From positions 203,043 to 267,042 of the forward strand of contig JAGWBV010000003.1 in assembly GCA_021295715.1 (NCBI GenBank): a stretch of 64,000 nt of DNA, written 5' to 3'. Position numbers and translations under genes: made by a program. This document shows, piece after piece, positions 2,816-47,302 of the stretch (its first letter is position 1; each line of letters begins with the position of its first letter). Source of the DNA: Candidatus Poribacteria bacterium. GTDB taxonomy: Bacteria > Poribacteria > WGA-4E > WGA-3G. The notes beneath the pieces were generated by a model, which was given only the letters and a program-made list of their open reading frames with translations, was not told where the DNA came from and ran no database searches.

Positions 2816-3835
2816 ATGGCAAAAACGTATCGCGTCGGCTTCGCATCTCTTGTGCATGACCATGTATGGGGTGAACTTCGCCACTGGAAGGCACATCCAA
2901 ACGTTGAAATTGTCGCTGCAGGCGATGTCAATGCGGAATTACGCGCCCAATTCAGCGCAGAAGTCGGTATCGAGAATATCTATAACTCTTGGCAAGAAAT
3001 GGTGGAGAAAGAGGAATTAGATATTGTCCAAGCGGCCTCGGAAAACAATGCGGGTGCTGACATCGTCGAAGCGGCAGCGGCGAAAGGGATCCACGTCGTA
3101 TCCGAAAAGCCGATGGCTGCGCGACTCTCACAAGCGGATCGGATGCTTGCCGCAGCGGAGAACGCTGGTACCCTATTGATGGTGAACTGGCCCACCGCAT
3201 GGAGTCCCGCACTCAACACCGCAATGAACCTCATCAAAGATGGGGCGATTGGCGACATTTTCTATTTCAAATGGCGTTCCGCACATAATGGACCGATGGA
3301 AATCGGGTGCTCTCGCTACTTCTATGAGTGGCTCTACGATGAAGAGAAAAATGGTGCAGGTGCGTTGATGGATTACTGTTGTTACTGCGCCGATATGTGT
3401 GCCTACCTCCTCGGTCTGCCACAGCAAGTAACGGCGTTCCGCGGCACCTTTGTTAAAGACTATCCGATCCCTGACGACAACGCCGTCATCGTCATGAAAT
3501 ACGGCAATGCGTTTGGACTCACGGAAGCATCTTGGACCCAAAAGGTTGGCTATATCACACCGAATCCGGTAGTCTATGGCACGGAGGGCGCGTTGATGGT
3601 AAGCGGCAACGAAGTTCACCTGCATCCTGCAAATGGCGACGCTGAAGTAGTTACCCCTGAACCACTCCCAGAGGGCAAACGCAACGCCGCGGAATACTTT
3701 ATTCACTGCTTGGAGACAGGCGAACCGATTGAAGGTCTGTGCAGTGCCAAAGTGAGCCGTGATGCCCAAGAAATCCTCGAAGCGGGACTGGTGTCAGCGG
3801 ATAGTGGACAGGTTGTTAACTTGCCGATGTCGTAA
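2816..3835 (+). CDS. Gfo/Idh/MocA family oxidoreductase
   Basis: An N-terminal NAD(P)-binding Rossmann region (RVGFASLVHDHVW ... EIVAAGD) precedes the typical C-terminal alpha/beta domain. GGAGG lies 8 nt upstream of the ATG. Confidence 0.85.
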   Translation: MAKTYRVGFASLVHDHVWGELRHWKAHPNVEIVAAGDVNAELRAQFSAEVGIENIYNSWQEMVEKEELDIVQAASENNAGADIVEAAAAKGIHVVSEKPMAARLSQADRMLAAAENAGTLLMVNWPTAWSPALNTAMNLIKDGAIGDIFYFKWRSAHNGPMEIGCSRYFYEWLYDEEKNGAGALMDYCCYCADMCAYLLGLPQQVTAFRGTFVKDYPIPDDNAVIVMKYGNAFGLTEASWTQKVGYITPNPVVYGTEGALMVSGNEVHLHPANGDAEVVTPEPLPEGKRNAAEYFIHCLETGEPIEGLCSAKVSRDAQEILEAGLVSADSGQVVNLPMS

Positions 3836-3888
3836 AGTATCACGGGTGCGGTTTCAGACCGTGCCCATAGGAACGTCAGGAGAAATTG

Positions 3889-4650
3889 ATGAGCAATAGA
3901 ATTCCAATAGCGTTACAACTATATTCCGTTAGAGATGATTGTGCAGGCGACCTATCTTTAACGCTCCAAGCGGTCGCACAGATGGGTTATGAAGGTGTTG
4001 AGTTTGCGGGTTACTATGATCGGACTGCCGAAGAATTACGCGGGATGTGCGATGACCTCGGATTGAAAGTTGCGGGGACGCATACAGGGATAAACACACT
4101 TCTCGGTGATGAACTCGCCAAAACGGTTGAATTCAACAAGGGACTCGGCAATCCGTATCTGATTGTGCCGGGACTCTCTGCGGAGTACCAAGGTTCGCAA
4201 CAAGCATGGCGTGAGACAGCAAAACTCTTCAACGATATTGCTGAAAAAATCGCTGATCAAGGGATGTTCACGGGTTACCACAATCACACAGGTGAATTCA
4301 CACCGATGGAAGATGAAGTTCCGTGGGATATATTCGGCGAGAACACCCGTGACGATGTCGTGATGCAAATTGACATCGGTCATGCCCTTCGCGCAGGTGC
4401 CGACCCTGTGGCGTATATTGAACGCTATCCCGGTAGATCGAAATTGGTGCACCTGAAAGAGTATTCACCTACGAATGACAAGGCAAACGTCGGTGAAGGT
4501 GAGATTCCGTGGGAGGCTGTGTTCCATGCCTGTGAAACCGTCGGTGGCACGGAGTGGTACATCGTTGAACAGGAAAGTTACGCCTATCCACCTCTTGAAT
4601 GTGCGGAACGCTGCATCGAAAATCTACGAAAGATGGGGAAAATTTCTTAA
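3889..4650 (+). CDS. sugar phosphate isomerase/epimerase (xylose-isomerase-like TIM barrel)
   Basis: The product shows the AP endonuclease 2 / xylose isomerase-like TIM pattern (GYEGVEF ... HNHTGEF ... IDIGH). Start is ATG 3889 with AGGAGA 5 nt upstream; the track begins at TTG 3886. Confidence 0.8.
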   Translation: MSNRIPIALQLYSVRDDCAGDLSLTLQAVAQMGYEGVEFAGYYDRTAEELRGMCDDLGLKVAGTHTGINTLLGDELAKTVEFNKGLGNPYLIVPGLSAEYQGSQQAWRETAKLFNDIAEKIADQGMFTGYHNHTGEFTPMEDEVPWDIFGENTRDDVVMQIDIGHALRAGADPVAYIERYPGRSKLVHLKEYSPTNDKANVGEGEIPWEAVFHACETVGGTEWYIVEQESYAYPPLECAERCIENLRKMGKIS

Positions 4651-4853
4651 TTATACCTTGCGGAGAAACAACGGACGTTTGAACGCTAACGTGCGTCCCT
4701 CAAATCCGTTTGCGTGTTTTTGCAATGTAATACAAGGAATGAATTTCGTCTATTCCCAGACTAAATCCGGTGTTTCTGCGTATTGTTGCAAGCTGCGTTT
4801 AAAAACCTTTCCGTAGATCCGCTTTCCACTTCGTTTCAAGCTGCGCGCTTTTT
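4646..4853 (-). repeat. copy of composite intergenic element, reverse-oriented relative to flanking genes (start-proximal box overlaps the stop codon of the upstream gene)
   Basis: TTAATTATACCTTGCGG at 4646-4663 is followed by the CGTCCCTCAAATCCGTTTGCGTGTTTTTGC and TTTCTGCGTATTGTTGCAAGC hairpin modules seen in the other copies. No gene start abuts the box in its sense orientation. Confidence 0.6.
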
Positions 4854-5612
4854 ATGCTAAAATCCAAAAATAGATTGACACCTAAAGGACAGCGACCTAC
4901 CAGTCGTTCCGATAGTGTTGAAACAGATCTTTTGCTCTGGTGGGAAGATTTTTATCTTCCCATTTTCGAGTACGTCCTCCCAAAAATTGGGAATCTGGAA
5001 GGGAAAAAGGTCCTTGAACTCGGTACTGGTACTGGGGGCACTGCGACGCTGCTGGCGAAACGGGGTGCCTCTGTTATCGGCATAGATTTACTGCCTTTTC
5101 GACTCGCTGAAGCGCAGGCGCGCGCAACAGAACACAACGTCGTTGAGGCGGTTAATTTTGCCCTGATGGACGCGACGCATCTCGCCTTTCCCGATAATAC
5201 CTTCGATTTTATCATTTCTAAATCCGTATTGGTTTTCACAGATCATCGGCAAACTGCGAAAGAATGCTACCGCGTTCTCAAACCGGAGGGAAAAGCGATC
5301 TTCATGGAAAACATGCGCCATCACCCGATGGTATGGTTGTATCGGAAAATGTTCCTGAAGTATTCGGGTAAACTGCGTTACTTTTCAGTGGGGGATATTG
5401 AAACCGTCGGTGCTGAATTTGAGAAGTTGGAGCATCGTGAGTTTCATCTCTCCGCCGTGAGCGCACTGTTTTGGCAGAAATGCATTTCTATCCCACTATT
5501 TTATCGGTGGAGCCTTCGCATCCTTAAAGTGATTGATACATCTCTCCTGAAATGCCTACCATTCCTCAAGCGATTCTGTTGGATTACTGCGATGATTTGC
5601 CACAGAGATTAG
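4854..5612 (+). CDS. class I SAM-dependent methyltransferase (type 11-like)
   Basis: VLELGTGTGGTATLLAKRGASVIGIDL is the glycine-rich SAM motif I, followed by an FDFIIS acidic motif. The N-terminal boundary is uncertain. Confidence 0.75.
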   Translation: MLKSKNRLTPKGQRPTSRSDSVETDLLLWWEDFYLPIFEYVLPKIGNLEGKKVLELGTGTGGTATLLAKRGASVIGIDLLPFRLAEAQARATEHNVVEAVNFALMDATHLAFPDNTFDFIISKSVLVFTDHRQTAKECYRVLKPEGKAIFMENMRHHPMVWLYRKMFLKYSGKLRYFSVGDIETVGAEFEKLEHREFHLSAVSALFWQKCISIPLFYRWSLRILKVIDTSLLKCLPFLKRFCWITAMICHRD

Positions 5613-5640
5613 TGATCTGACATACTTCCATAGTTAAGTG

Positions 5641-5990
5641 CGTAGGATGGGTTGAACCATAGGTGTCAATTTAAGAAAAAACTGATCGTGGTACCGTAGG
5701 TTGGGTAGAACGGATTCCATCAAACCCCGAAAAAGGCACAGAAAAATGGAAACTCGCCAGACACGCTATAGCCACCAGATACCGAGTGAAACCCAACGCT
5801 TTGGGGGGAGACTTCCGTGACACTGACCGCATGAAGTTGGGTTTCACTGTGTTTTTGAGAGTATAGGGTGTCTATCAAATTTCAGGTGTGTTTGGCACCC
5901 CGATGTTCGCCTTCTCAACACCGTTCTACCCAACCTACGGGCGCATTGTTCTTGGGTTCAACCCGGTTCGGTTAGGGAACCGAACCTATC
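5641..5990. repeat. MITE-like element with 20-bp perfect terminal inverted repeats and nested internal hairpins
   Basis: CCGTAGGTTGGGTAGAACGG at 5694-5713 is the exact reverse complement of 5921-5940. There is an outer pair GGGTTGAACC (5649-5658) / GGTTCAACCC (5955-5964) and an inner pair GTGAAACCCAAC / GTTGGGTTTCAC. A related partial copy lies at 19655-19700. Confidence 0.5.
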
Positions 5991-6070
5991 GGGGTCTGGG
6001 TGAACGTCGCGTTTAATGCAATATAAACTTTTAGAAGTGGTATAGCATGGCGGAGAAGTCTTTGCCGTTG

Positions 6071-6865
6071 TTAGCCATGTTTCAGCCAATTGTCAAAAAG
6101 CGGTTTGAGCCGTTCGGGGAGACTTCCTAAAAAAGTGGGTTCGTTGAGCCATTCTTGACTGGTCGGACTCTGTGGATTTGGAGGTTCATTTTCCGAAGGA
6201 ACAGTGAGAACAGCATAGTGGAGCGTCTGCCGTTTTTTCCCAGAAAGGTTGTATCCTTTGTGGAGCAGGCTTGAATTGTAAAAGACGATGTCACCGGCTT
6301 TCAGGTCTACGACCCGTTGGTTCGGCATCGCTGCCTGTGGGGTTTGTCGTATGACAGCGCGCTCGGCATCTGTGAGTTCACGTCGATGGCTACCCGGGAC
6401 GATATAAAGGGTCTCATCGTCATAAAGCGCACCATTGAGTTGAACGTGGCTTCTGAGTCGACTACGGAGGGTTTCAAGTGGGACTTCCCCATCGGGAGCG
6501 GAATCTCGATGCCAATTGATGTGATACGGTTTTCGATCGGAACTGAGGAGAAGCGTGCAGAGGTGATACCTTAACCTTTGCCCAATAAGTGCTTCAATGA
6601 CATCTAATATCTGCGGATGTGCAAGCGCGCCGACGAGTGCTTGCTCGCGAATGCTTGGGTGAAAAATGTTATTGACCCCCCAGATGTCATCGCGTTCGCT
6701 ATCTATGTAGCGTAGGTGGTCGGCGTGTAGACCTTCAACACGGCATTTGTGGAGTATCCGATCGATAGCATTCCGATAGGTTTGGATGTCGGTTTCAGAG
6801 AGTGCGCTCTTACGAATAATATAACCATTTTCAACAAAGGCATCAATTTCTGAGTGGGTTAGCAT
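6071..6865 (-). CDS. phytanoyl-CoA dioxygenase (PhyH) family protein
   Basis: The product has PhyH-fold length and motifs: a HxD...H 2-His-1-carboxylate facial triad context (WHRDS, PGSH). It is one of four paralogs in the window. Confidence 0.8.
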   Translation of the reverse strand: MLTHSEIDAFVENGYIIRKSALSETDIQTYRNAIDRILHKCRVEGLHADHLRYIDSERDDIWGVNNIFHPSIREQALVGALAHPQILDVIEALIGQRLRYHLCTLLLSSDRKPYHINWHRDSAPDGEVPLETLRSRLRSHVQLNGALYDDETLYIVPGSHRRELTDAERAVIRQTPQAAMPNQRVVDLKAGDIVFYNSSLLHKGYNLSGKKRQTLHYAVLTVPSENEPPNPQSPTSQEWLNEPTFLGSLPERLKPLFDNWLKHG

Positions 6866-18314: not shown

Positions 18315-19595
18315 TTGCCTAATTTTCCGATGAAAATTACCGAGATTGAATCAATTCCATTGCGTGTGCCTTACGAAGAACGGATTCGCAAGAGATACTA
18401 TCACTTCGCGATGACCGAGTTGGTCACGGTCTATAAATTTTATACCGATACCGGTCTCATCGGTCTCGGAGAGAACCCAGGACCGCCGTTTGATCAGGAG
18501 GTGCTGGATGCCTATCTCGGCACGAATCCGTTCGATCACGTCATGGGTGACGGACGTTTTAATCTCGACATGGCGTGCTACGACCTGATGGGGAAACATC
18601 TTGGTCTGCCAGCATGGAAATTGATGGGTCAACAGGTTCGACAGTGGGTTGCGATGGGGTGGTGGATGCCGTGTATGTCTCCTGAGGACACCGCTGCTGA
18701 GGTTCAAGTCGCTGCTGAACGCGGATACCGCGGTTTGAAGTGTAAAGCTCGGGCTTTCTACGATGTTGTCGAGCAGTCGCATGCGATCCAAGAGGTCGCG
18801 TCCCCTGACTTTCGCGTGGAGTTCGACTTCAACGGCTCGTTAATTAATGTCGAAAAGGCACTACCTATCCTACGGGAACTGGAGAAAATTCCGGTCGTCA
18901 AGGGTCTCGAAGAACCGATTTTCGCTTATGATGTGGAGGGGTGGCGACGGTTACATCAAGAGATTCGGATTCCGTTCTATTTGCATGGTGTCGGTGTTAT
19001 CCGGGAGGGTGCCTCGCGTCAACCCTCTGGTCCATGGATTGGACTTCGGGTAGGCGATTTTGACGGTGCGCTGTGTAGCCACGAGAGTGTCAAAAGTGCG
19101 TTGGCATCGGGGTGGGCTTTCGCTGCTGCGAATACACCGATCCTACTCCAGTATGTCGGGACTGGTATTACGGCGGCATTTGCGTGTCATCTGGGAGCCG
19201 TGATACCGACAGCCACTATACCGGGTGTCACTGCGAGCCACGCTTATGAAAGCGATCTACTTGTTACACCGCACAAAGTCCAGCGCGGATTTATGCAGGT
19301 CCCTGACGGTCCCGGTCTCGGTGTCGCATTAGATGAAGATGCCGTGAAACGGTATTCCCAAACGCCTGAACCGACATGGGCGCGGCACATCTCCGTTGTC
19401 ACGTTACCGGGTGGCATAAAGCACTACTACCGAAACCTGCAACAAGCGGAACGTCTCATGAAGCAGGGGGTGGACGAATCTTATGCTCCGGGTGTCCGTC
19501 TGGATGAGTGGGAGGACGACGGTAGTGAAGCGTTTGACCAACTCTTCAAGCAGTTACAGGAGAGAGATTGGCCCGTGTGGGAGACATCGGTTTAG
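18315..19595 (+). CDS. enolase-superfamily enzyme (mandelate racemase/muconate lactonizing enzyme-like)
   Basis: It has the N-terminal capping-domain pattern and a central barrel with acidic metal ligands. Length is 426 aa. Confidence 0.75.
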   Translation: MPNFPMKITEIESIPLRVPYEERIRKRYYHFAMTELVTVYKFYTDTGLIGLGENPGPPFDQEVLDAYLGTNPFDHVMGDGRFNLDMACYDLMGKHLGLPAWKLMGQQVRQWVAMGWWMPCMSPEDTAAEVQVAAERGYRGLKCKARAFYDVVEQSHAIQEVASPDFRVEFDFNGSLINVEKALPILRELEKIPVVKGLEEPIFAYDVEGWRRLHQEIRIPFYLHGVGVIREGASRQPSGPWIGLRVGDFDGALCSHESVKSALASGWAFAAANTPILLQYVGTGITAAFACHLGAVIPTATIPGVTASHAYESDLLVTPHKVQRGFMQVPDGPGLGVALDEDAVKRYSQTPEPTWARHISVVTLPGGIKHYYRNLQQAERLMKQGVDESYAPGVRLDEWEDDGSEAFDQLFKQLQERDWPVWETSV

Positions 19596-19745
19596 TGTTG
19601 GGTTTCGCTATAATCCCAATGATGTTAAGATGCCTGAATTCCGAAGGTGAGACTTTAGTCTTGGGAGTTCTCCGTGATCTCCGCTCTACCCAACCTACGC
19701 ACTACGCACGAATCAGCTAACCTGTATGACAAGGAGTAGCATATT

Positions 19746-20555
19746 ATGATGACACCTGAACAACGTTATCTTTTCGATGTTACCGGTTACCTTCACCTGA
19801 AGAATGTCATGAGTGACGAAGAACTGAAAACGGCGCAAGAAGCCGCAAACGAATACATCAACACGCCTACTGAAGAACTCCCACCCGGATTTAATTCCAG
19901 CGAAAAGAACCTCCCAAACGGCTTTGCCTTTGCGAAACCCTTAGAGGCACTCACGATGCACCGATCAACGTGGCCGATCATCAAGGAACTGACGAATAAC
20001 AAACCGCAGTTGATGCGTGGCACAATGATTGCGGATCGGGCGGGTGTGTCAGAGTCGGCGGAAGGGCTCCGCTTGCATTGCGCACGAGAGGATTTTGGAT
20101 GGCACTGTAACCGTTATGAGGTCCGACACGGTCAAATCTTCTGTGACGATTTTGTTGTCTTTCCGTATCTGTTCGATGTGCATCCGGGAGATGGTGGATT
20201 GCTGGTCGTTCCCGGCACACACAAGACTCTTTTTGATCGTCCCGAACACCTCTACAACAACGGAAAGATTAAGGATACTGATGATGTTCCAGAAGGGGTC
20301 GTTAACATCACACCAAAGGCAGGGGATTTCGTAATCATCTCTGAACTCTTGACGCACGGTGCACTGCCTTGGAAACCGAAAGACCGCTATCGTTGCGTCC
20401 TGACCTTACGCTACAGACCGCAACATCGTGGCGAGAGTCGAGTGCCGCCAGAGGTTAGAACACGATTATCACCAGAAACGCTGGAACTCATCTCCCAGGC
20501 AGACCACTATCACACGAAAGAGATCGTTAAAAAGGATGTTATTACATTGACGTAA
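19746..20555 (+). CDS. phytanoyl-CoA dioxygenase (PhyH) family protein
   Basis: PhyH-like N-terminus (RYLFDVTGYLHLKNVMSDEEL) and a HxD..H triad context. Confidence 0.8.
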   Translation: MMTPEQRYLFDVTGYLHLKNVMSDEELKTAQEAANEYINTPTEELPPGFNSSEKNLPNGFAFAKPLEALTMHRSTWPIIKELTNNKPQLMRGTMIADRAGVSESAEGLRLHCAREDFGWHCNRYEVRHGQIFCDDFVVFPYLFDVHPGDGGLLVVPGTHKTLFDRPEHLYNNGKIKDTDDVPEGVVNITPKAGDFVIISELLTHGALPWKPKDRYRCVLTLRYRPQHRGESRVPPEVRTRLSPETLELISQADHYHTKEIVKKDVITLT

Positions 20556-44467: not shown

Positions 44468-45115
44468 GTGACGCAGTCAATTCAACGTATCACACAAAAA
44501 GACACGGATTATCCAACAGGATTGGAGCAGTATTTAAAAACGGAGACACCGGAAACGATCTGGGCACGCGGGAATATTGACCTGTTACTTGGGCAAAACA
44601 CCACCTTAAGCGGAGACCTCTGGGCACTTTTCTGCTCCAGCAAATGTCCCGGGGATATTATCCTGAAAACGCACGACTTAGCTCAAACATTCAAGGAAAG
44701 AGAGATCCCAACGATCGGTGGGTATCACTCTCCAGTTGAACAAGAGTGCCTACGCGTTTTACTGCGTGGCTCACAACCGATTCTTTTATGTCCGGCACGG
44801 AGCATCGAAAACATGCGACTGAAATCGGCGTGGAAGGAGGCGTTGTCTGCGGAGCGTCTATTAATCCTATCTATTTTTGAGAGTCGCCATCGGCGATCAA
44901 CAGCGGCATTGGCGCACCAACGCAACGCCTTTGTTGCCGCACTTGCGGATAAAATCTGTATCGCCCACGCTGCAGAGGACAGCAAGATTTTGGAATTCGC
45001 GCAGATGGTGTTGGCGTGGGGCAAACCCGTTTTTACTTTTGAGACACCAGCAAACGATTCACTTTTTCAACTTGGGACACGACGGATTGAAACGTCCCAA
45101 TTCGGAGGCAAATAA
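44468..45115 (+). CDS. DprA/Smf-like Rossmann-fold (SLOG superfamily) protein, Rossmann domain only
   Basis: The blocks ALFCSSKCPGDI, IGGYHSPVEQECLRVLL, PILLCPARS, QRNAFVAALADKICIAHAAEDS and KPVFTFE align with the DprA Rossmann-domain blocks. Confidence 0.65.
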   Translation: MTQSIQRITQKDTDYPTGLEQYLKTETPETIWARGNIDLLLGQNTTLSGDLWALFCSSKCPGDIILKTHDLAQTFKEREIPTIGGYHSPVEQECLRVLLRGSQPILLCPARSIENMRLKSAWKEALSAERLLILSIFESRHRRSTAALAHQRNAFVAALADKICIAHAAEDSKILEFAQMVLAWGKPVFTFETPANDSLFQLGTRRIETSQFGGK

Positions 45116-46017
45116 TGGCGGAAACCGTTTTTTTGGGAGACCATGAACTCACCTTTCCCGGTCCACACCTCGGTGTGCTTCGGGACTGCAACACTGTCCT
45201 TGATTCAGCAGAAGGCTTGCACAAACAGATAGCGGAGGACGGGTATCTCCTCGTCCGGGGCTTAATCGATAAAGAAAAAGTTGCCGCGGGACGACGGGCT
45301 ATCCTTGAATACGCCAACGGAAACGGGAAAGATGAGGTCTTCAAGTCCGGCACTGACATAATGGAGGCGGTCGCTGGTGACGGAAGACCTGGGCGAACAA
45401 TGGGCACGCCCGCCGTTACGCACCATCCAGATGTGCAGGCGGTTTTGGAGGGAGACGAACTCTTCAAGTTCTTCCGAACCTTCTTTAGCGGCGATACCCG
45501 AACCTTCGATTACAAGTGGCTACGGTTCGTCCGTCCTGACGGTTGGTCGGGACCCCATTTCGATTTCGTCTACATGGGGAGAGGCTCGGAGCAGCTGCAC
45601 ACCTGTTGGGTACCATTCGGCGATGTGCCAGCAACGATGGGAACATTGACTGTGCTTGTCGGGTCGCATAACCTCCCAAGCTTCGCTCGGATTCGAGATA
45701 CCTACGGCAAAACAGATGTTGACAGAGACGGCACCCCTGGACATTTCGGGAACGTTCCGATGGAGATCAGCGAAAAATACGGCGGTGAGTGGCAGACAGC
45801 GGATTTCGAGATGGGAGATGTCATCATCTTCACGATGCACACGATGCACACCTCTACGAAAAATCTCTCCGACAGATGGCGAATCAGTTGTGACATCCGT
45901 TTCCAACCCGCAGCGCACCCAATTGATGAGCGATGGGTCGGCAAAAACCCGATCTCTCATACGGGCAGTCAGAAGATTTCGTTTGAAGAGGCAAAGGAAC
46001 AGTGGGGATTGGAATAG
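45115..46017 (+). CDS. phytanoyl-CoA dioxygenase (PhyH) family protein
   Basis: It has a PhyH-like N-terminus and HFDF / H-x-D context. Its ATG overlaps the stop of the DprA-like gene (TAATG), and GGAGG lies 6 nt upstream. Confidence 0.8.
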   Translation: MAETVFLGDHELTFPGPHLGVLRDCNTVLDSAEGLHKQIAEDGYLLVRGLIDKEKVAAGRRAILEYANGNGKDEVFKSGTDIMEAVAGDGRPGRTMGTPAVTHHPDVQAVLEGDELFKFFRTFFSGDTRTFDYKWLRFVRPDGWSGPHFDFVYMGRGSEQLHTCWVPFGDVPATMGTLTVLVGSHNLPSFARIRDTYGKTDVDRDGTPGHFGNVPMEISEKYGGEWQTADFEMGDVIIFTMHTMHTSTKNLSDRWRISCDIRFQPAAHPIDERWVGKNPISHTGSQKISFEEAKEQWGLE

Positions 46018-46126
46018 AGGGGCATAAACCTTTATTACCAGTAGGCGAGGTTAGAAACCTCGCCAGCGGCGGAGGAGGATAGTTGAAAATCGAACAACTG
46101 TCCACAGGTTTTCGGGCTTTACTATA

Positions 46127-47302
46127 TTAGCCGAACAACGCTCGTCGGATCTGACGCACTGCTTGACGAATGCGATCTTCGTTCTCTACAAGGGCAATGC
46201 GGATATAGCCCTCGCCGTTATGCCCAAACCCCGCGCCGGGAGAAACACAGACCTCTGCCTCGCTGAGTAGTTTCATGGCGAATTCCATGGAACTCAGGTG
46301 CTTCCATGCTTCAGGGATCGGTGCCCAGACGAACATCGAAGCCTGCGGTTTTGAGACCTTCCATCCGATTCTGTTCAGACCATCCACAAGTACATCACGG
46401 CGTTTTTGGTAGACAGCAGCGTTTTCCATCACCGTATCCTCTGGAGTGCGCAGTGCCATAATTGCGGCAACTTGGATCGGTGCGAAAATCCCATAATCGT
46501 AATATCCTTTAATCCGAGCGAGTGCTTCGACAATCTCACGGTTTCCAGCGGCAAACCCACACCGCCAGCCTGCCATATTGTAGGATTTAGACAGAGAGAT
46601 AAATTCAATACCGATATCCTTCGCGCCTTTCGCTTGCAAGAGACTGGGTGCCTTGTAGCCATCAAAAACAATGTCTGCATACGCCAAATCGTGGATTACA
46701 ATAATCTCCTGGCGTTTTGCGAAGGCGACAATCTCTTCAAAGAACCCAAGGTCAACGACAGCACCCGTTGGGTTATGCGGAAAACTTAAGATTAACGCCT
46801 TGGGTCTGGGCCAAATGTCGCGTGTGATTTCGGTGAGCGAGGGGATGAAATCGTTCTCTTCTGTGAGTGGTATACTCACCACACTTCCACCTGCGAGCAC
46901 AATGCTGTACATGTGAATAGGAAAGGTCGGATTTGGGACCATCGCTAAGTCACCGTTGTCAATCAAGGCTAAAGCGAGGTGTCCGAGTCCCTCTTTTGTG
47001 CCAATAACAGCGATCGCCTCTTCATCCGGATCAATATCTACACCGAATCGACGTTCATAATGCCAACTGACTTCCCTGCGCAGGTTGTAGATGCCACGCG
47101 AAACGGAATAGCGGTGATTTCTGAGTTCTTGTGCCGCCTCCGTCAATTTATCAATAATGGGTTGTGGCGTCGGTTGATTTGGATTGCCCATCGCCAAATC
47201 GATAATATCAATGCCTTGCTGCCGACGTTCATGTGTTAACTGTCTGAGCTTGCCGAACATGTATGGTGGAAGTCGATTTAAGCGTTTTGAAAATATATTC
47301 AT
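46127..47302 (-). CDS. class I/II pyridoxal-phosphate-dependent aminotransferase (alanine / LL-diaminopimelate aminotransferase-like)
   Basis: N-terminal RLPPYMF...IDLAMGNP, a PLP-lysine region SKSYNMAGWRCGF, and 391 aa length. Confidence 0.8.
   Translation of the reverse strand: MNIFSKRLNRLPPYMFGKLRQLTHERRQQGIDIIDLAMGNPNQPTPQPIIDKLTEAAQELRNHRYSVSRGIYNLRREVSWHYERRFGVDIDPDEEAIAVIGTKEGLGHLALALIDNGDLAMVPNPTFPIHMYSIVLAGGSVVSIPLTEENDFIPSLTEITRDIWPRPKALILSFPHNPTGAVVDLGFFEEIVAFAKRQEIIVIHDLAYADIVFDGYKAPSLLQAKGAKDIGIEFISLSKSYNMAGWRCGFAAGNREIVEALARIKGYYDYGIFAPIQVAAIMALRTPEDTVMENAAVYQKRRDVLVDGLNRIGWKVSKPQASMFVWAPIPEAWKHLSSMEFAMKLLSEAEVCVSPGAGFGHNGEGYIRIALVENEDRIRQAVRQIRRALFG

Follow-up and report, generated by a model that had tools for sequence, protein, structure and literature searches.

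A probable REPIN-like doublet of giant-loop GTAG hairpins in a Candidatus Poribacteria genome

A 64,000-nt stretch of a Candidatus Poribacteria genome (assembly GCA_021295715.1, contig JAGWBV010000003.1, forward strand, positions 203,043 to 267,042; hereafter the window, whose own numbering is used for its features) carries, between two convergent open reading frames (ORFs), a non-coding element at 5694-5940 that starts with CCGTAGGTTGGGTAGAACGG (5694-5713) and finishes with the exact reverse complement of this 20-mer (5921-5940), the two arms being separated by 207 nt. What kind of element is bounded in this way, and by what means would it have been multiplied? A sequence-only reading of the region had proposed an element like a MITE (miniature inverted-repeat transposable element), with a structured non-coding RNA as the alternative. 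The comparison reported here leads to a different answer: the element is probably a REPIN-like doublet, that is, a pair of inverted repetitive extragenic palindromes (REPs) of the GTAG-tagged type, in which the loop of each hairpin is exceptionally long.

The arms are far beyond chance, matches to the 20-mer with up to 3 mismatches being found 3 times in the window against 0.00 expected (100 shuffles), with the third match on the minus strand at 19681-19700. Also present is the further inverted pair that had been noticed between the arms, GTGAAACCCAAC / GTTGGGTTTCAC, which is part of the inverted repeat I2 (5776-5797 / 5836-5857). As its other copies reveal, 5694-5940 is made up of two units of ~102 nt placed back to back, tail to tail, and is not one body with terminal repeats (Table 1). 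Each unit has the layout 5'-GTAGGTTGGGTAGARCGG (head), ~71 nt, AGYGAAACCCAAC (tail)-3', so laid out that the left arm is the head of unit 1 plus 2 nt, the right arm is the head of unit 2, and the inner pair is formed by the two tails. The units of the window are 102-103 nt long and the doublet measures ~245 nt. The match near 19.7 kb, which the sequence-only reading had described as a partial second copy, turned out to be a complete single unit, the other end of which (GTTGGGTTTCGCT at 19597-19609) had been missed; it takes up the interval from the stop codon of an ORF at 18315-19595 to the start of a PhyH-family ORF at 19746. The resemblance between GAGACTTCCGTGA and GAGTTCTCCGTGA that had been cited for this second copy falls in non-homologous parts (spacer versus unit interior) and is regarded as coincidence.

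Further copies of the element do exist, as that reading had anticipated. A scan with the exact 19-nt head through the contigs of one genome per species matched at least 120 loci, including 30 doublets of the same architecture, with ~8 kb of sequence available per locus. Approximately 96 of these loci lie in ~34 assemblies of Candidatus Poribacteria (or Poribacteria-like bacteria), with 21 loci on chromosome OZ251998.1 alone, and the remainder are spread over cyanobacteria, Desulfobacterota, Pseudoalteromonas, Pseudomonas, an anammox bacterium, and an Anaerolineae metagenome-assembled genome (MAG); no copy was matched on viral contigs. A blastn search with positions 5561-6100 revealed ~30 loci homologous over about 5654-5945 at 70-87% identity, and none of the loci collected is syntenic with the window. 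Short ORFs across the element are not conserved as frames, because the alignment contains many gaps of 1-2 nt.

Counting the scanned loci together with the window, there are 192 heads, 174 of which are accompanied by a tail and make up complete units. The head-tail distance is bimodal, 34 units having 0-1 nt between head and tail and 134 having 67-74 nt; outside Poribacteria nearly all units are of the short form, and the long form is essentially restricted to that group. By their interiors, the long units fall into class A (31 distinct sequences), class B (46), class C (33), class D (7), and several small classes, with units 1 and 2 of the window belonging to classes A and B, respectively, and the unit at 19.6 kb to a class of its own. 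All 37 doublets have their GTAG ends outward, and 30 of them consist of the same asymmetric A+B pair with a spacer of 37-43 nt. The doublet in the window is a member of this family, which has spread to many copies in the genomes of Candidatus Poribacteria. Multiplication has been recent in at least one of them: OX639992.1 holds five ~99% identical copies of a block of ~500 nt with the doublet, at 1.58, 2.87, 3.19, 4.27, and 5.21 Mb, and the dispersal of such near-identical copies indicates recent copying. In addition, orthologous units are kept across species (e.g., L035/L059/L065/L095), and in syntenic locus pairs orthologous gaps hold different occupants.

The units share a single hairpin architecture. 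GTAG directly precedes GTTGGGT in all 3 units of the window and in 174 of the 174 units; the 7-bp stem GTTGGGT/ACCCAAC is invariant and is followed by an internal loop of unpaired AGA versus GAA, by 2 bp in which RC of the head pairs with GY of the tail (AC/GT in unit 1), and by the giant loop. The head R and tail Y combine as G-C in 89 units, A-T in 73, G-T in 5, and A-A in 7, and double changes occur in the short forms (e.g., GTCGGGT/ACCCGAC). In the alignment of the 30 doublets, columns 164-254, which pair within a unit, hold AU 20 times and GC 8 times, and the competing inter-unit pair (columns 16-254) is broken in exactly those 8 GC doublets, which represent approximately four independent lineages; inter-unit pairs show no compensatory change. 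Stem covariation hence supports pairing within the unit rather than between units. One long hairpin is predicted for the whole doublet (-137.7 kcal/mol, z = -5.35); at the one variable position, 8 of the 30 copies have the inter-unit pair broken and the intra-unit pair kept.

The loop of the long units is locked in length at ~71 nt (69-73 nt) across classes whose loop sequences are unrelated: the consensus interiors of classes A to D display no detectable similarity to one another (z = -0.1 to 2.3), while their length is kept. On the GTAG strand, the interiors are rich in A (36.7%, versus 26% in the window) and poor in G (16.9%, versus 24%), and consensus folds computed class by class yielded no interior structure in any unit class on either strand.

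The link of these units to a transposase comes from the short form, GTAGGTTGGGTAGAGCGGAGCGAAACCCAAC, which at 31 nt has the defining layout of a GTAG-tagged REP and occurs in cyanobacteria, Desulfobacterota, and gammaproteobacteria. At locus L048, in a Desulfatiglandaceae MAG, a 180-aa ORF (5053-5592) lies between a REP on the plus strand (4982-5012), 40 nt upstream of the gene, and a REP on the minus strand (5604-5634), 11 nt downstream; the encoded protein belongs to the REP-associated tyrosine transposases (RAYTs), with 203.5 bits to NCBIfam NF047646 (cut-off 80) plus a match to PF01797. The same REP(+)-RAYT-REP(-) arrangement is found at locus L201. We fetched 80 metagenomic homologues (48-63% identity), and GTAGGTTGGGT (≤1 mismatch) is present at 49 of these 80 loci, typically with one plus-strand copy 40-90 nt upstream and one minus-strand copy 30-70 nt downstream of the gene. 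A protein search returned 7993 RAYTs; among the 120 matches listed, those from named organisms are mostly cyanobacterial.

Long loops, too, are found beside RAYT genes. REPs with 48/49 nt (L149), 49 nt (L142), and 54 nt (L175) between the 7-bp stem halves directly flank such genes, L163 has a loop of 63 nt, and arrays beside the gene of L133 have loops of 72 nt. Loop length is fixed within these other RAYT lineages as well. The recurrence of long-loop REPs at several RAYT loci indicates that loop expansion is a trait of this REP/RAYT clade, and the Poribacteria units, with about 84-85 nt between the 7-bp stem halves, stand at the upper end of its range. A REP-RAYT-REP arrangement with the same ends, long loops included, is observed in other lineages. 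The topology of the A/B doublet corresponds exactly to REP-RAYT-REP with the gene removed; as at L149, its two REPs have equal loop lengths and different loop sequences.

We thus propose, with a probability of about 0.7, that the element is a non-autonomous REPIN-like doublet of giant-loop GTAG REPs that is copied by a RAYT. Two GTAG-tagged REP hairpins are inverted with respect to each other, with their GTAG ends outward and their tails towards the 38-nt spacer, and the apical loop of each is expanded from a few bases to ~71, which accounts for the unit of ~102 nt and the doublet of ~245 nt. The doublet would have originated from a RAYT gene with its two flanking REPs, the gene having subsequently been lost, and would have been copied in trans by a RAYT, an HUH/Y1 transposase. 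An IS200/IS605-type single-strand mechanism is established for this enzyme family. In single-stranded DNA, the enzyme would recognise the stem together with its GTAG tag; it would create no target-site duplication, and the near-invariance of heads and tails would reflect this recognition. The hairpins could incidentally act as a barrier at the 3' ends of the convergent transcripts.

Several observations weigh against this explanation. A hidden Markov model (HMM) of 81 RAYTs detected no member of the cognate RAYT clade, either in the window or in the 96 Poribacteria loci (~8 kb each, a small part of those genomes), and a combination of regular expressions, tblastn, and the same HMM recovered only unrelated Y1 genes in the Poribacteria loci; these genes (L105, L015, L108, and L047) are flanked by other repeats. 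The 7+2-bp stem closing a loop of ~75 nt is predicted to be thermodynamically weak, the fold of unit 1 amounting to -7.6 kcal/mol (z = -0.07), and we know of no tested RAYT that accepts substrates with a weak stem and a loop of ~75 nt. Because an exact head match selected the loci, part of the conservation seen in one head at each of them is built in, and its apparent degree is inflated; the tails and second heads, which were not selected for, are still nearly invariant. The limits of the repeated block differ among copies and genomes. Syntenic loci provided no clean case of a filled versus an empty orthologous site for the A/B doublet. Finally, related units of classes C and D ride in elements with terminal inverted repeats and target-site duplications (see below), so another transposase could contribute to their spread.

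A doubtful but conceivable alternative is that the long units are more than REPs with oversized loops and constitute a distinct hairpin element, the REP stem serving as a clamp that presents a length-locked, sequence-free, A-rich single strand of ~71 nt. The fixed loop length would then answer a mechanical or functional need, such as the spacing of a RAYT dimer, or the loop would be exchangeable cargo. If so, the activity of REPIN-RAYT-like systems would extend well beyond gammaproteobacteria to Poribacteria, cyanobacteria, and Desulfobacterota, and their forms would escape present REPIN detectors, which depend on repeats that are short and separated by less than 130 bp.

We consider it unlikely that the element has ceased to move and is retained by the host for an architectural or regulatory role, as a bidirectional hairpin barrier, a stabiliser of mRNA 3' ends, or a site for nucleoid proteins. 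Its placing between the stop codons of the convergent ORFs 4854-5612 (+) and 6071-6865 (-) would suit such a role, as would the persistence of orthologous units across species, and a loop of fixed length and free sequence could reflect a spacing requirement; roles of this kind are documented for REPs and for bacterial interspersed mosaic elements (BIMEs; PMC2817692, PMC3733652). The family at large does not favour such positions, however. By crude ORF calling, only 2 of 18 classifiable doublets lie in convergent gaps against 12 in tandem gaps, which amounts to no convergent preference, and single units show no orientation bias (19 in the same orientation versus 15 in the opposite one). A search for consensus promoters and terminators detected no terminator-like site in the element, which lacks a T-run, and the only promoter-like sites, 2 weak ones, lie upstream of it. 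The five dispersed copies in OX639992.1 likewise speak for recent copying and against immobility. Retention by the host would nevertheless be compatible with a REP doublet copied by a RAYT.

Equally improbable, in our estimate, is a classical MITE, i.e., an internally deleted derivative of an insertion sequence (IS) with a DDE transposase, moved by cut-and-paste through the 20-bp terminal inverted repeats. What stands of the original MITE-like assignment is that the element is small, non-coding, present in many copies, and bounded by perfect 20-bp inverted repeats. The target-site duplications that a MITE predicts did not materialise: the best direct repeats flanking the 30 A/B doublets measure 1-4 nt, no more than in random sequence. 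This result, together with block limits that vary from copy to copy, is why we do not regard the element as a classical MITE, and the conserved flanks outside the arms argue in the same direction. The arms are REP heads that are also found singly, each with its own tail; RAYT genes are the only transposase genes found between these ends, and no parent IS that has such ends and encodes a DDE transposase was detected in 200 loci. Movement of another kind may apply to part of the family, in that class C and D units in Poribacteria lie inside elements of ~215 nt with terminal inverted repeats of 13-15 bp (ACGTGAGTTCGAYA) and AT-rich duplications of 7 bp (TGTACAA, TACAATA, TTATTTA, and TTGTTTA), which are true MITEs with a giant-loop REP inside.

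We give very little credence to the reading in which about 250-350 nt encode a structured non-coding RNA or act as a cis-regulatory RNA. Several sequence blocks are conserved across species, and positions 5640-5995 fold far below shuffled sequences on both strands (z = -5.35 and -6.45); this low energy, the same for either strand, is attributable to the arms, which are palindromic. Rfam searches of the whole window at gathering scores, and of 5400-6300 at E ≤ 10, retrieved two tRNAs elsewhere in the window and otherwise chance-level matches, leaving the element without an Rfam family. The consensus fold of the 30 doublets keeps only the invariant stems of heads and tails (covariation term -0.13 kcal/mol), the 71-nt interiors being unpaired, and dozens of dispersed copies occur in all gene contexts and both orientations, lacking a consensus promoter or terminator. 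An integron attC site was rejected because the core sites, the letters of which fit GTTRRRY/RYYYAAC, stand in reversed order (GTTGGGT ... ACCCAAC on both strands) relative to 5'-RYYYAAC ... GTTRRRY-3'.

Table 1. Positions of the two-unit element, its neighbours, and related features
Feature	Position	Strand	Description
SAM (S-adenosylmethionine)-methyltransferase ORF	4854-5612	+	left neighbour of the gap
Degenerate head-like motif GCGTAGGATGGGTTGAAC	5641-5658	+	without tail; GTAGGATGGGT is 1 mismatch from the head core
Outer module ACCATAGGTGTCAATTTAAGAAAAAAC... (CCATAGGTGTCAATTT...)	5656-5693	+	separate repeat
Unit 1, class A	5696-5797	+	GTAG head GTAGGTTGGGTAGAACGG, 71-nt A-rich interior, tail AGTGAAACCCAAC
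Spacer between unit tails	5798-5835		38 nt; varies in sequence; 37-43 nt among the 30 A/B doublets
Unit 2, class B	5836-5938	-	GTAGGTTGGGTAGAACGG, 72-nt interior, AGTGAAACCCAAC (minus-strand reading)
Hairpin of a second REP family	5965-5989	-	ATAG + GTTCGGTT-CCCT-AACCGAAC
PhyH-family dioxygenase ORF	6071-6865	-	right neighbour of the gap
Complete single unit	19597-19698	-	read from 19698 to 19597: GTAGGTTGGGTAGAGCGG, 71-nt interior of its own class, AGCGAAACCCAAC
MITEs bearing class C/D units	L120 ~6150-6420, L003 6460-6680, L011, L005, L114		Poribacteria loci

The doublet occupies part of a 458-nt gap (5613-6070) that is a mosaic of repeats, comprising a degenerate head, an outer module, the doublet, and a hairpin of a second family with its 80-nt module. 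The degenerate head at 5641-5658 had been counted as a third copy of the end motif; its 11-nt head core is recognisable with 1 mismatch (GTAGGATGGGT), a matching tail is missing, and the motif is probably at best a truncated or degenerate head, even if GTAGGATGGGT is a genuine REP variant beside some RAYT genes (L145 and L171). The outer module brackets many doublets on both sides, in inverted orientation, and is present on the left side only in the window. The outer 10-nt pair said to enclose the element, GGGTTGAACC / GGTTCAACCC, exists (5649-5658 / 5955-5964) at a level explicable by chance, approximately 0.2 such pairs per 700 nt being expected by our estimate, and is not conserved in other copies. 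The hairpin GGTTCGGTT-AGGG-AACCGAACC was confirmed at 5965-5986. It opens, as GGTTCGGTTAGGGAACCGAACC, an 80-nt repeated module (5965-6044) that is 86% identical to L022 7299-7220, also matches L082, L017, and L069, and represents a second REP-like family with the pattern GGTKCGGTT-N4-AACCGMACC followed by TAC/TAT; relatives of the hairpin read GTAG + GTGCGGTT...AACCGCAC.

Other dispersed repeats are present in the window. A different short GTAG REP, GTAGGCGAGGTTAGAAACCTCGC, lies at 46041-46063 (+) between the convergent ORFs 45115-46017 (+) and 46127-47302 (-), and its stem, GCGAGGTT/AACCTCGC, recurs in Poribacteria loci. Another dispersed repeat, 49 nt long, lies at 4723-4771, in the gap that separates ORF 3886-4650 from ORF 4854-5612, and shares 94-96% identity with L028 1113-1161 and L062 6937-6893; the ORF covering it (4475-4816) may be spurious. 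Both repeat sites of the family in the window adjoin PhyH-family dioxygenase genes, on the downstream side of 6071-6865 (-) and on the upstream side of 19746-20555 (+), an adjacency that we treat as coincidence because units are few in the window and genomes of this type commonly carry PhyH genes.

Y1 genes with repeats of their own were also encountered in the Poribacteria loci. The IS200-type genes at L105 905-1387, L015 3668-4207, and L108 6798-7310 are flanked by arrays of a hairpin repeat, CACCCCGTAGGGGTG + CTATGTCTATAG, with which the ~500-nt blocks of OX639992.1 also start, these blocks finishing with a GGTGCGGTT hairpin. At L047, a RAYT-like ORF of 238 aa (2957-3673, minus strand; 63 bits to NF047646, below the cut-off) is flanked by another GTAG REP, GTAGCGCAAACTTT...AGTTTGCG, and the same sequence is found inside the ORF.

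How the units relate to described repeats can be judged first against the GTAG REPs. REPs consist of a GT(A/G)G head and a palindrome, and RAYT genes always lie between two inverted REPs (Nunvar et al. 2010, PMC2817692); the REP of Coxiella burnetii, GTAGGTTGGGCTGAGCTTGCGAAGCCCAAC (PMC2817692), is a close relative of the short form described here. A survey of 24 GTAG families in several phyla reported stems of 6-13 bp, loops mostly of 2-4 nt and at most 27 nt, GC-flanked loops preceded by di- or trinucleotides that are unpaired, and a preferred arrangement in dimers that have their GTAG ends outside and a separation of 20-100 bp (Di Nocera et al. 2013, PMC3733652). The units share with the families that have a 7-bp stem and a GC-flanked loop (GTAG-3/14/15 type) a GTAG that abuts GTTGGGT/ACCCAAC, the unpaired AGA/GAA trinucleotides, and the following covarying 2 bp (GC/GC or AC/GT), and they resemble GTAG REPs in being high-copy and mostly extragenic (81 of 100 elements have no overlap with an ORF of at least 100 aa by crude ORF calling), in the predominance of GTAG-outward dimers, and in a short form that flanks RAYT genes. 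They differ in the loop, ~71 nt versus the usual 2-15 nt and the maximum of 27 nt in the survey (PMC3733652), in the size of the unit, 102 nt versus 20-40 nt (a size criterion that the 31-nt short relatives fit), in combining a fixed loop length with loop sequences of unrelated classes, and in their host phylum, Poribacteria.

REPINs consist of two inverted REPs around a variable spacer, are called operationally at distances below 130 bp, and have been tied to the Group 2/3 RAYTs of gammaproteobacteria (10.1101/2021.07.10.451892). As in REPINs (Bertels and Rainey 2011, PMC3116915), the present doublets comprise two REPs inverted around a variable spacer, with conservation at the ends and variability in the middle, what recurs is the doublet (30 A/B copies) and not the single REP, target-site duplications are lacking, and copies are inherited vertically at orthologous sites. 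Unlike in REPINs, the heads are 207 nt apart, beyond the 130-bp rule (the tails being 38 nt apart), the two halves belong to different classes (A and B), and covariation favours intra-unit over inter-unit pairing. With the BIMEs of enterobacteria, the Poribacteria repeats have in common an intergenic mosaic of hairpin repeat types and linker modules that are combined differently at each locus, whereas the modules and their sequences differ. Bacterial MITEs such as Nezha, Correia/NEMIS, and ERIC are similar in size, inverted ends, non-coding nature, and intergenic multi-copy occurrence, but the A/B doublet has no target-site duplication or DDE-type parent, and its ends are halves of REP hairpins.

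We found no published account of these repeats in Poribacteria, where matches to the sequence strings were primer coincidences and palindromes were mentioned only in connection with CRISPR. The repeats fill many intergenic gaps of these genomes and will affect assembly, gene calling (through spurious ORFs across them), and searches for small RNAs. If a RAYT copies the units, the substrate range and taxonomic reach of REPIN-RAYT systems would be wider than described, and such elements would go unnoticed by repeat finders that are set for short REPs lying close together. The kind of element is known; what is new is a GTAG REP, and a REPIN-like doublet of it, with a giant, length-locked loop, in a new phylum. 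REPs and REPINs have been described as very short hairpins, mostly from proteobacteria, whereas here a loop of 71 nt, constant in length and unrelated in sequence, parts the two halves of the same GTAG hairpin, and the family, which comprises several divergent classes, is abundant among the sponge symbionts of a candidate phylum.

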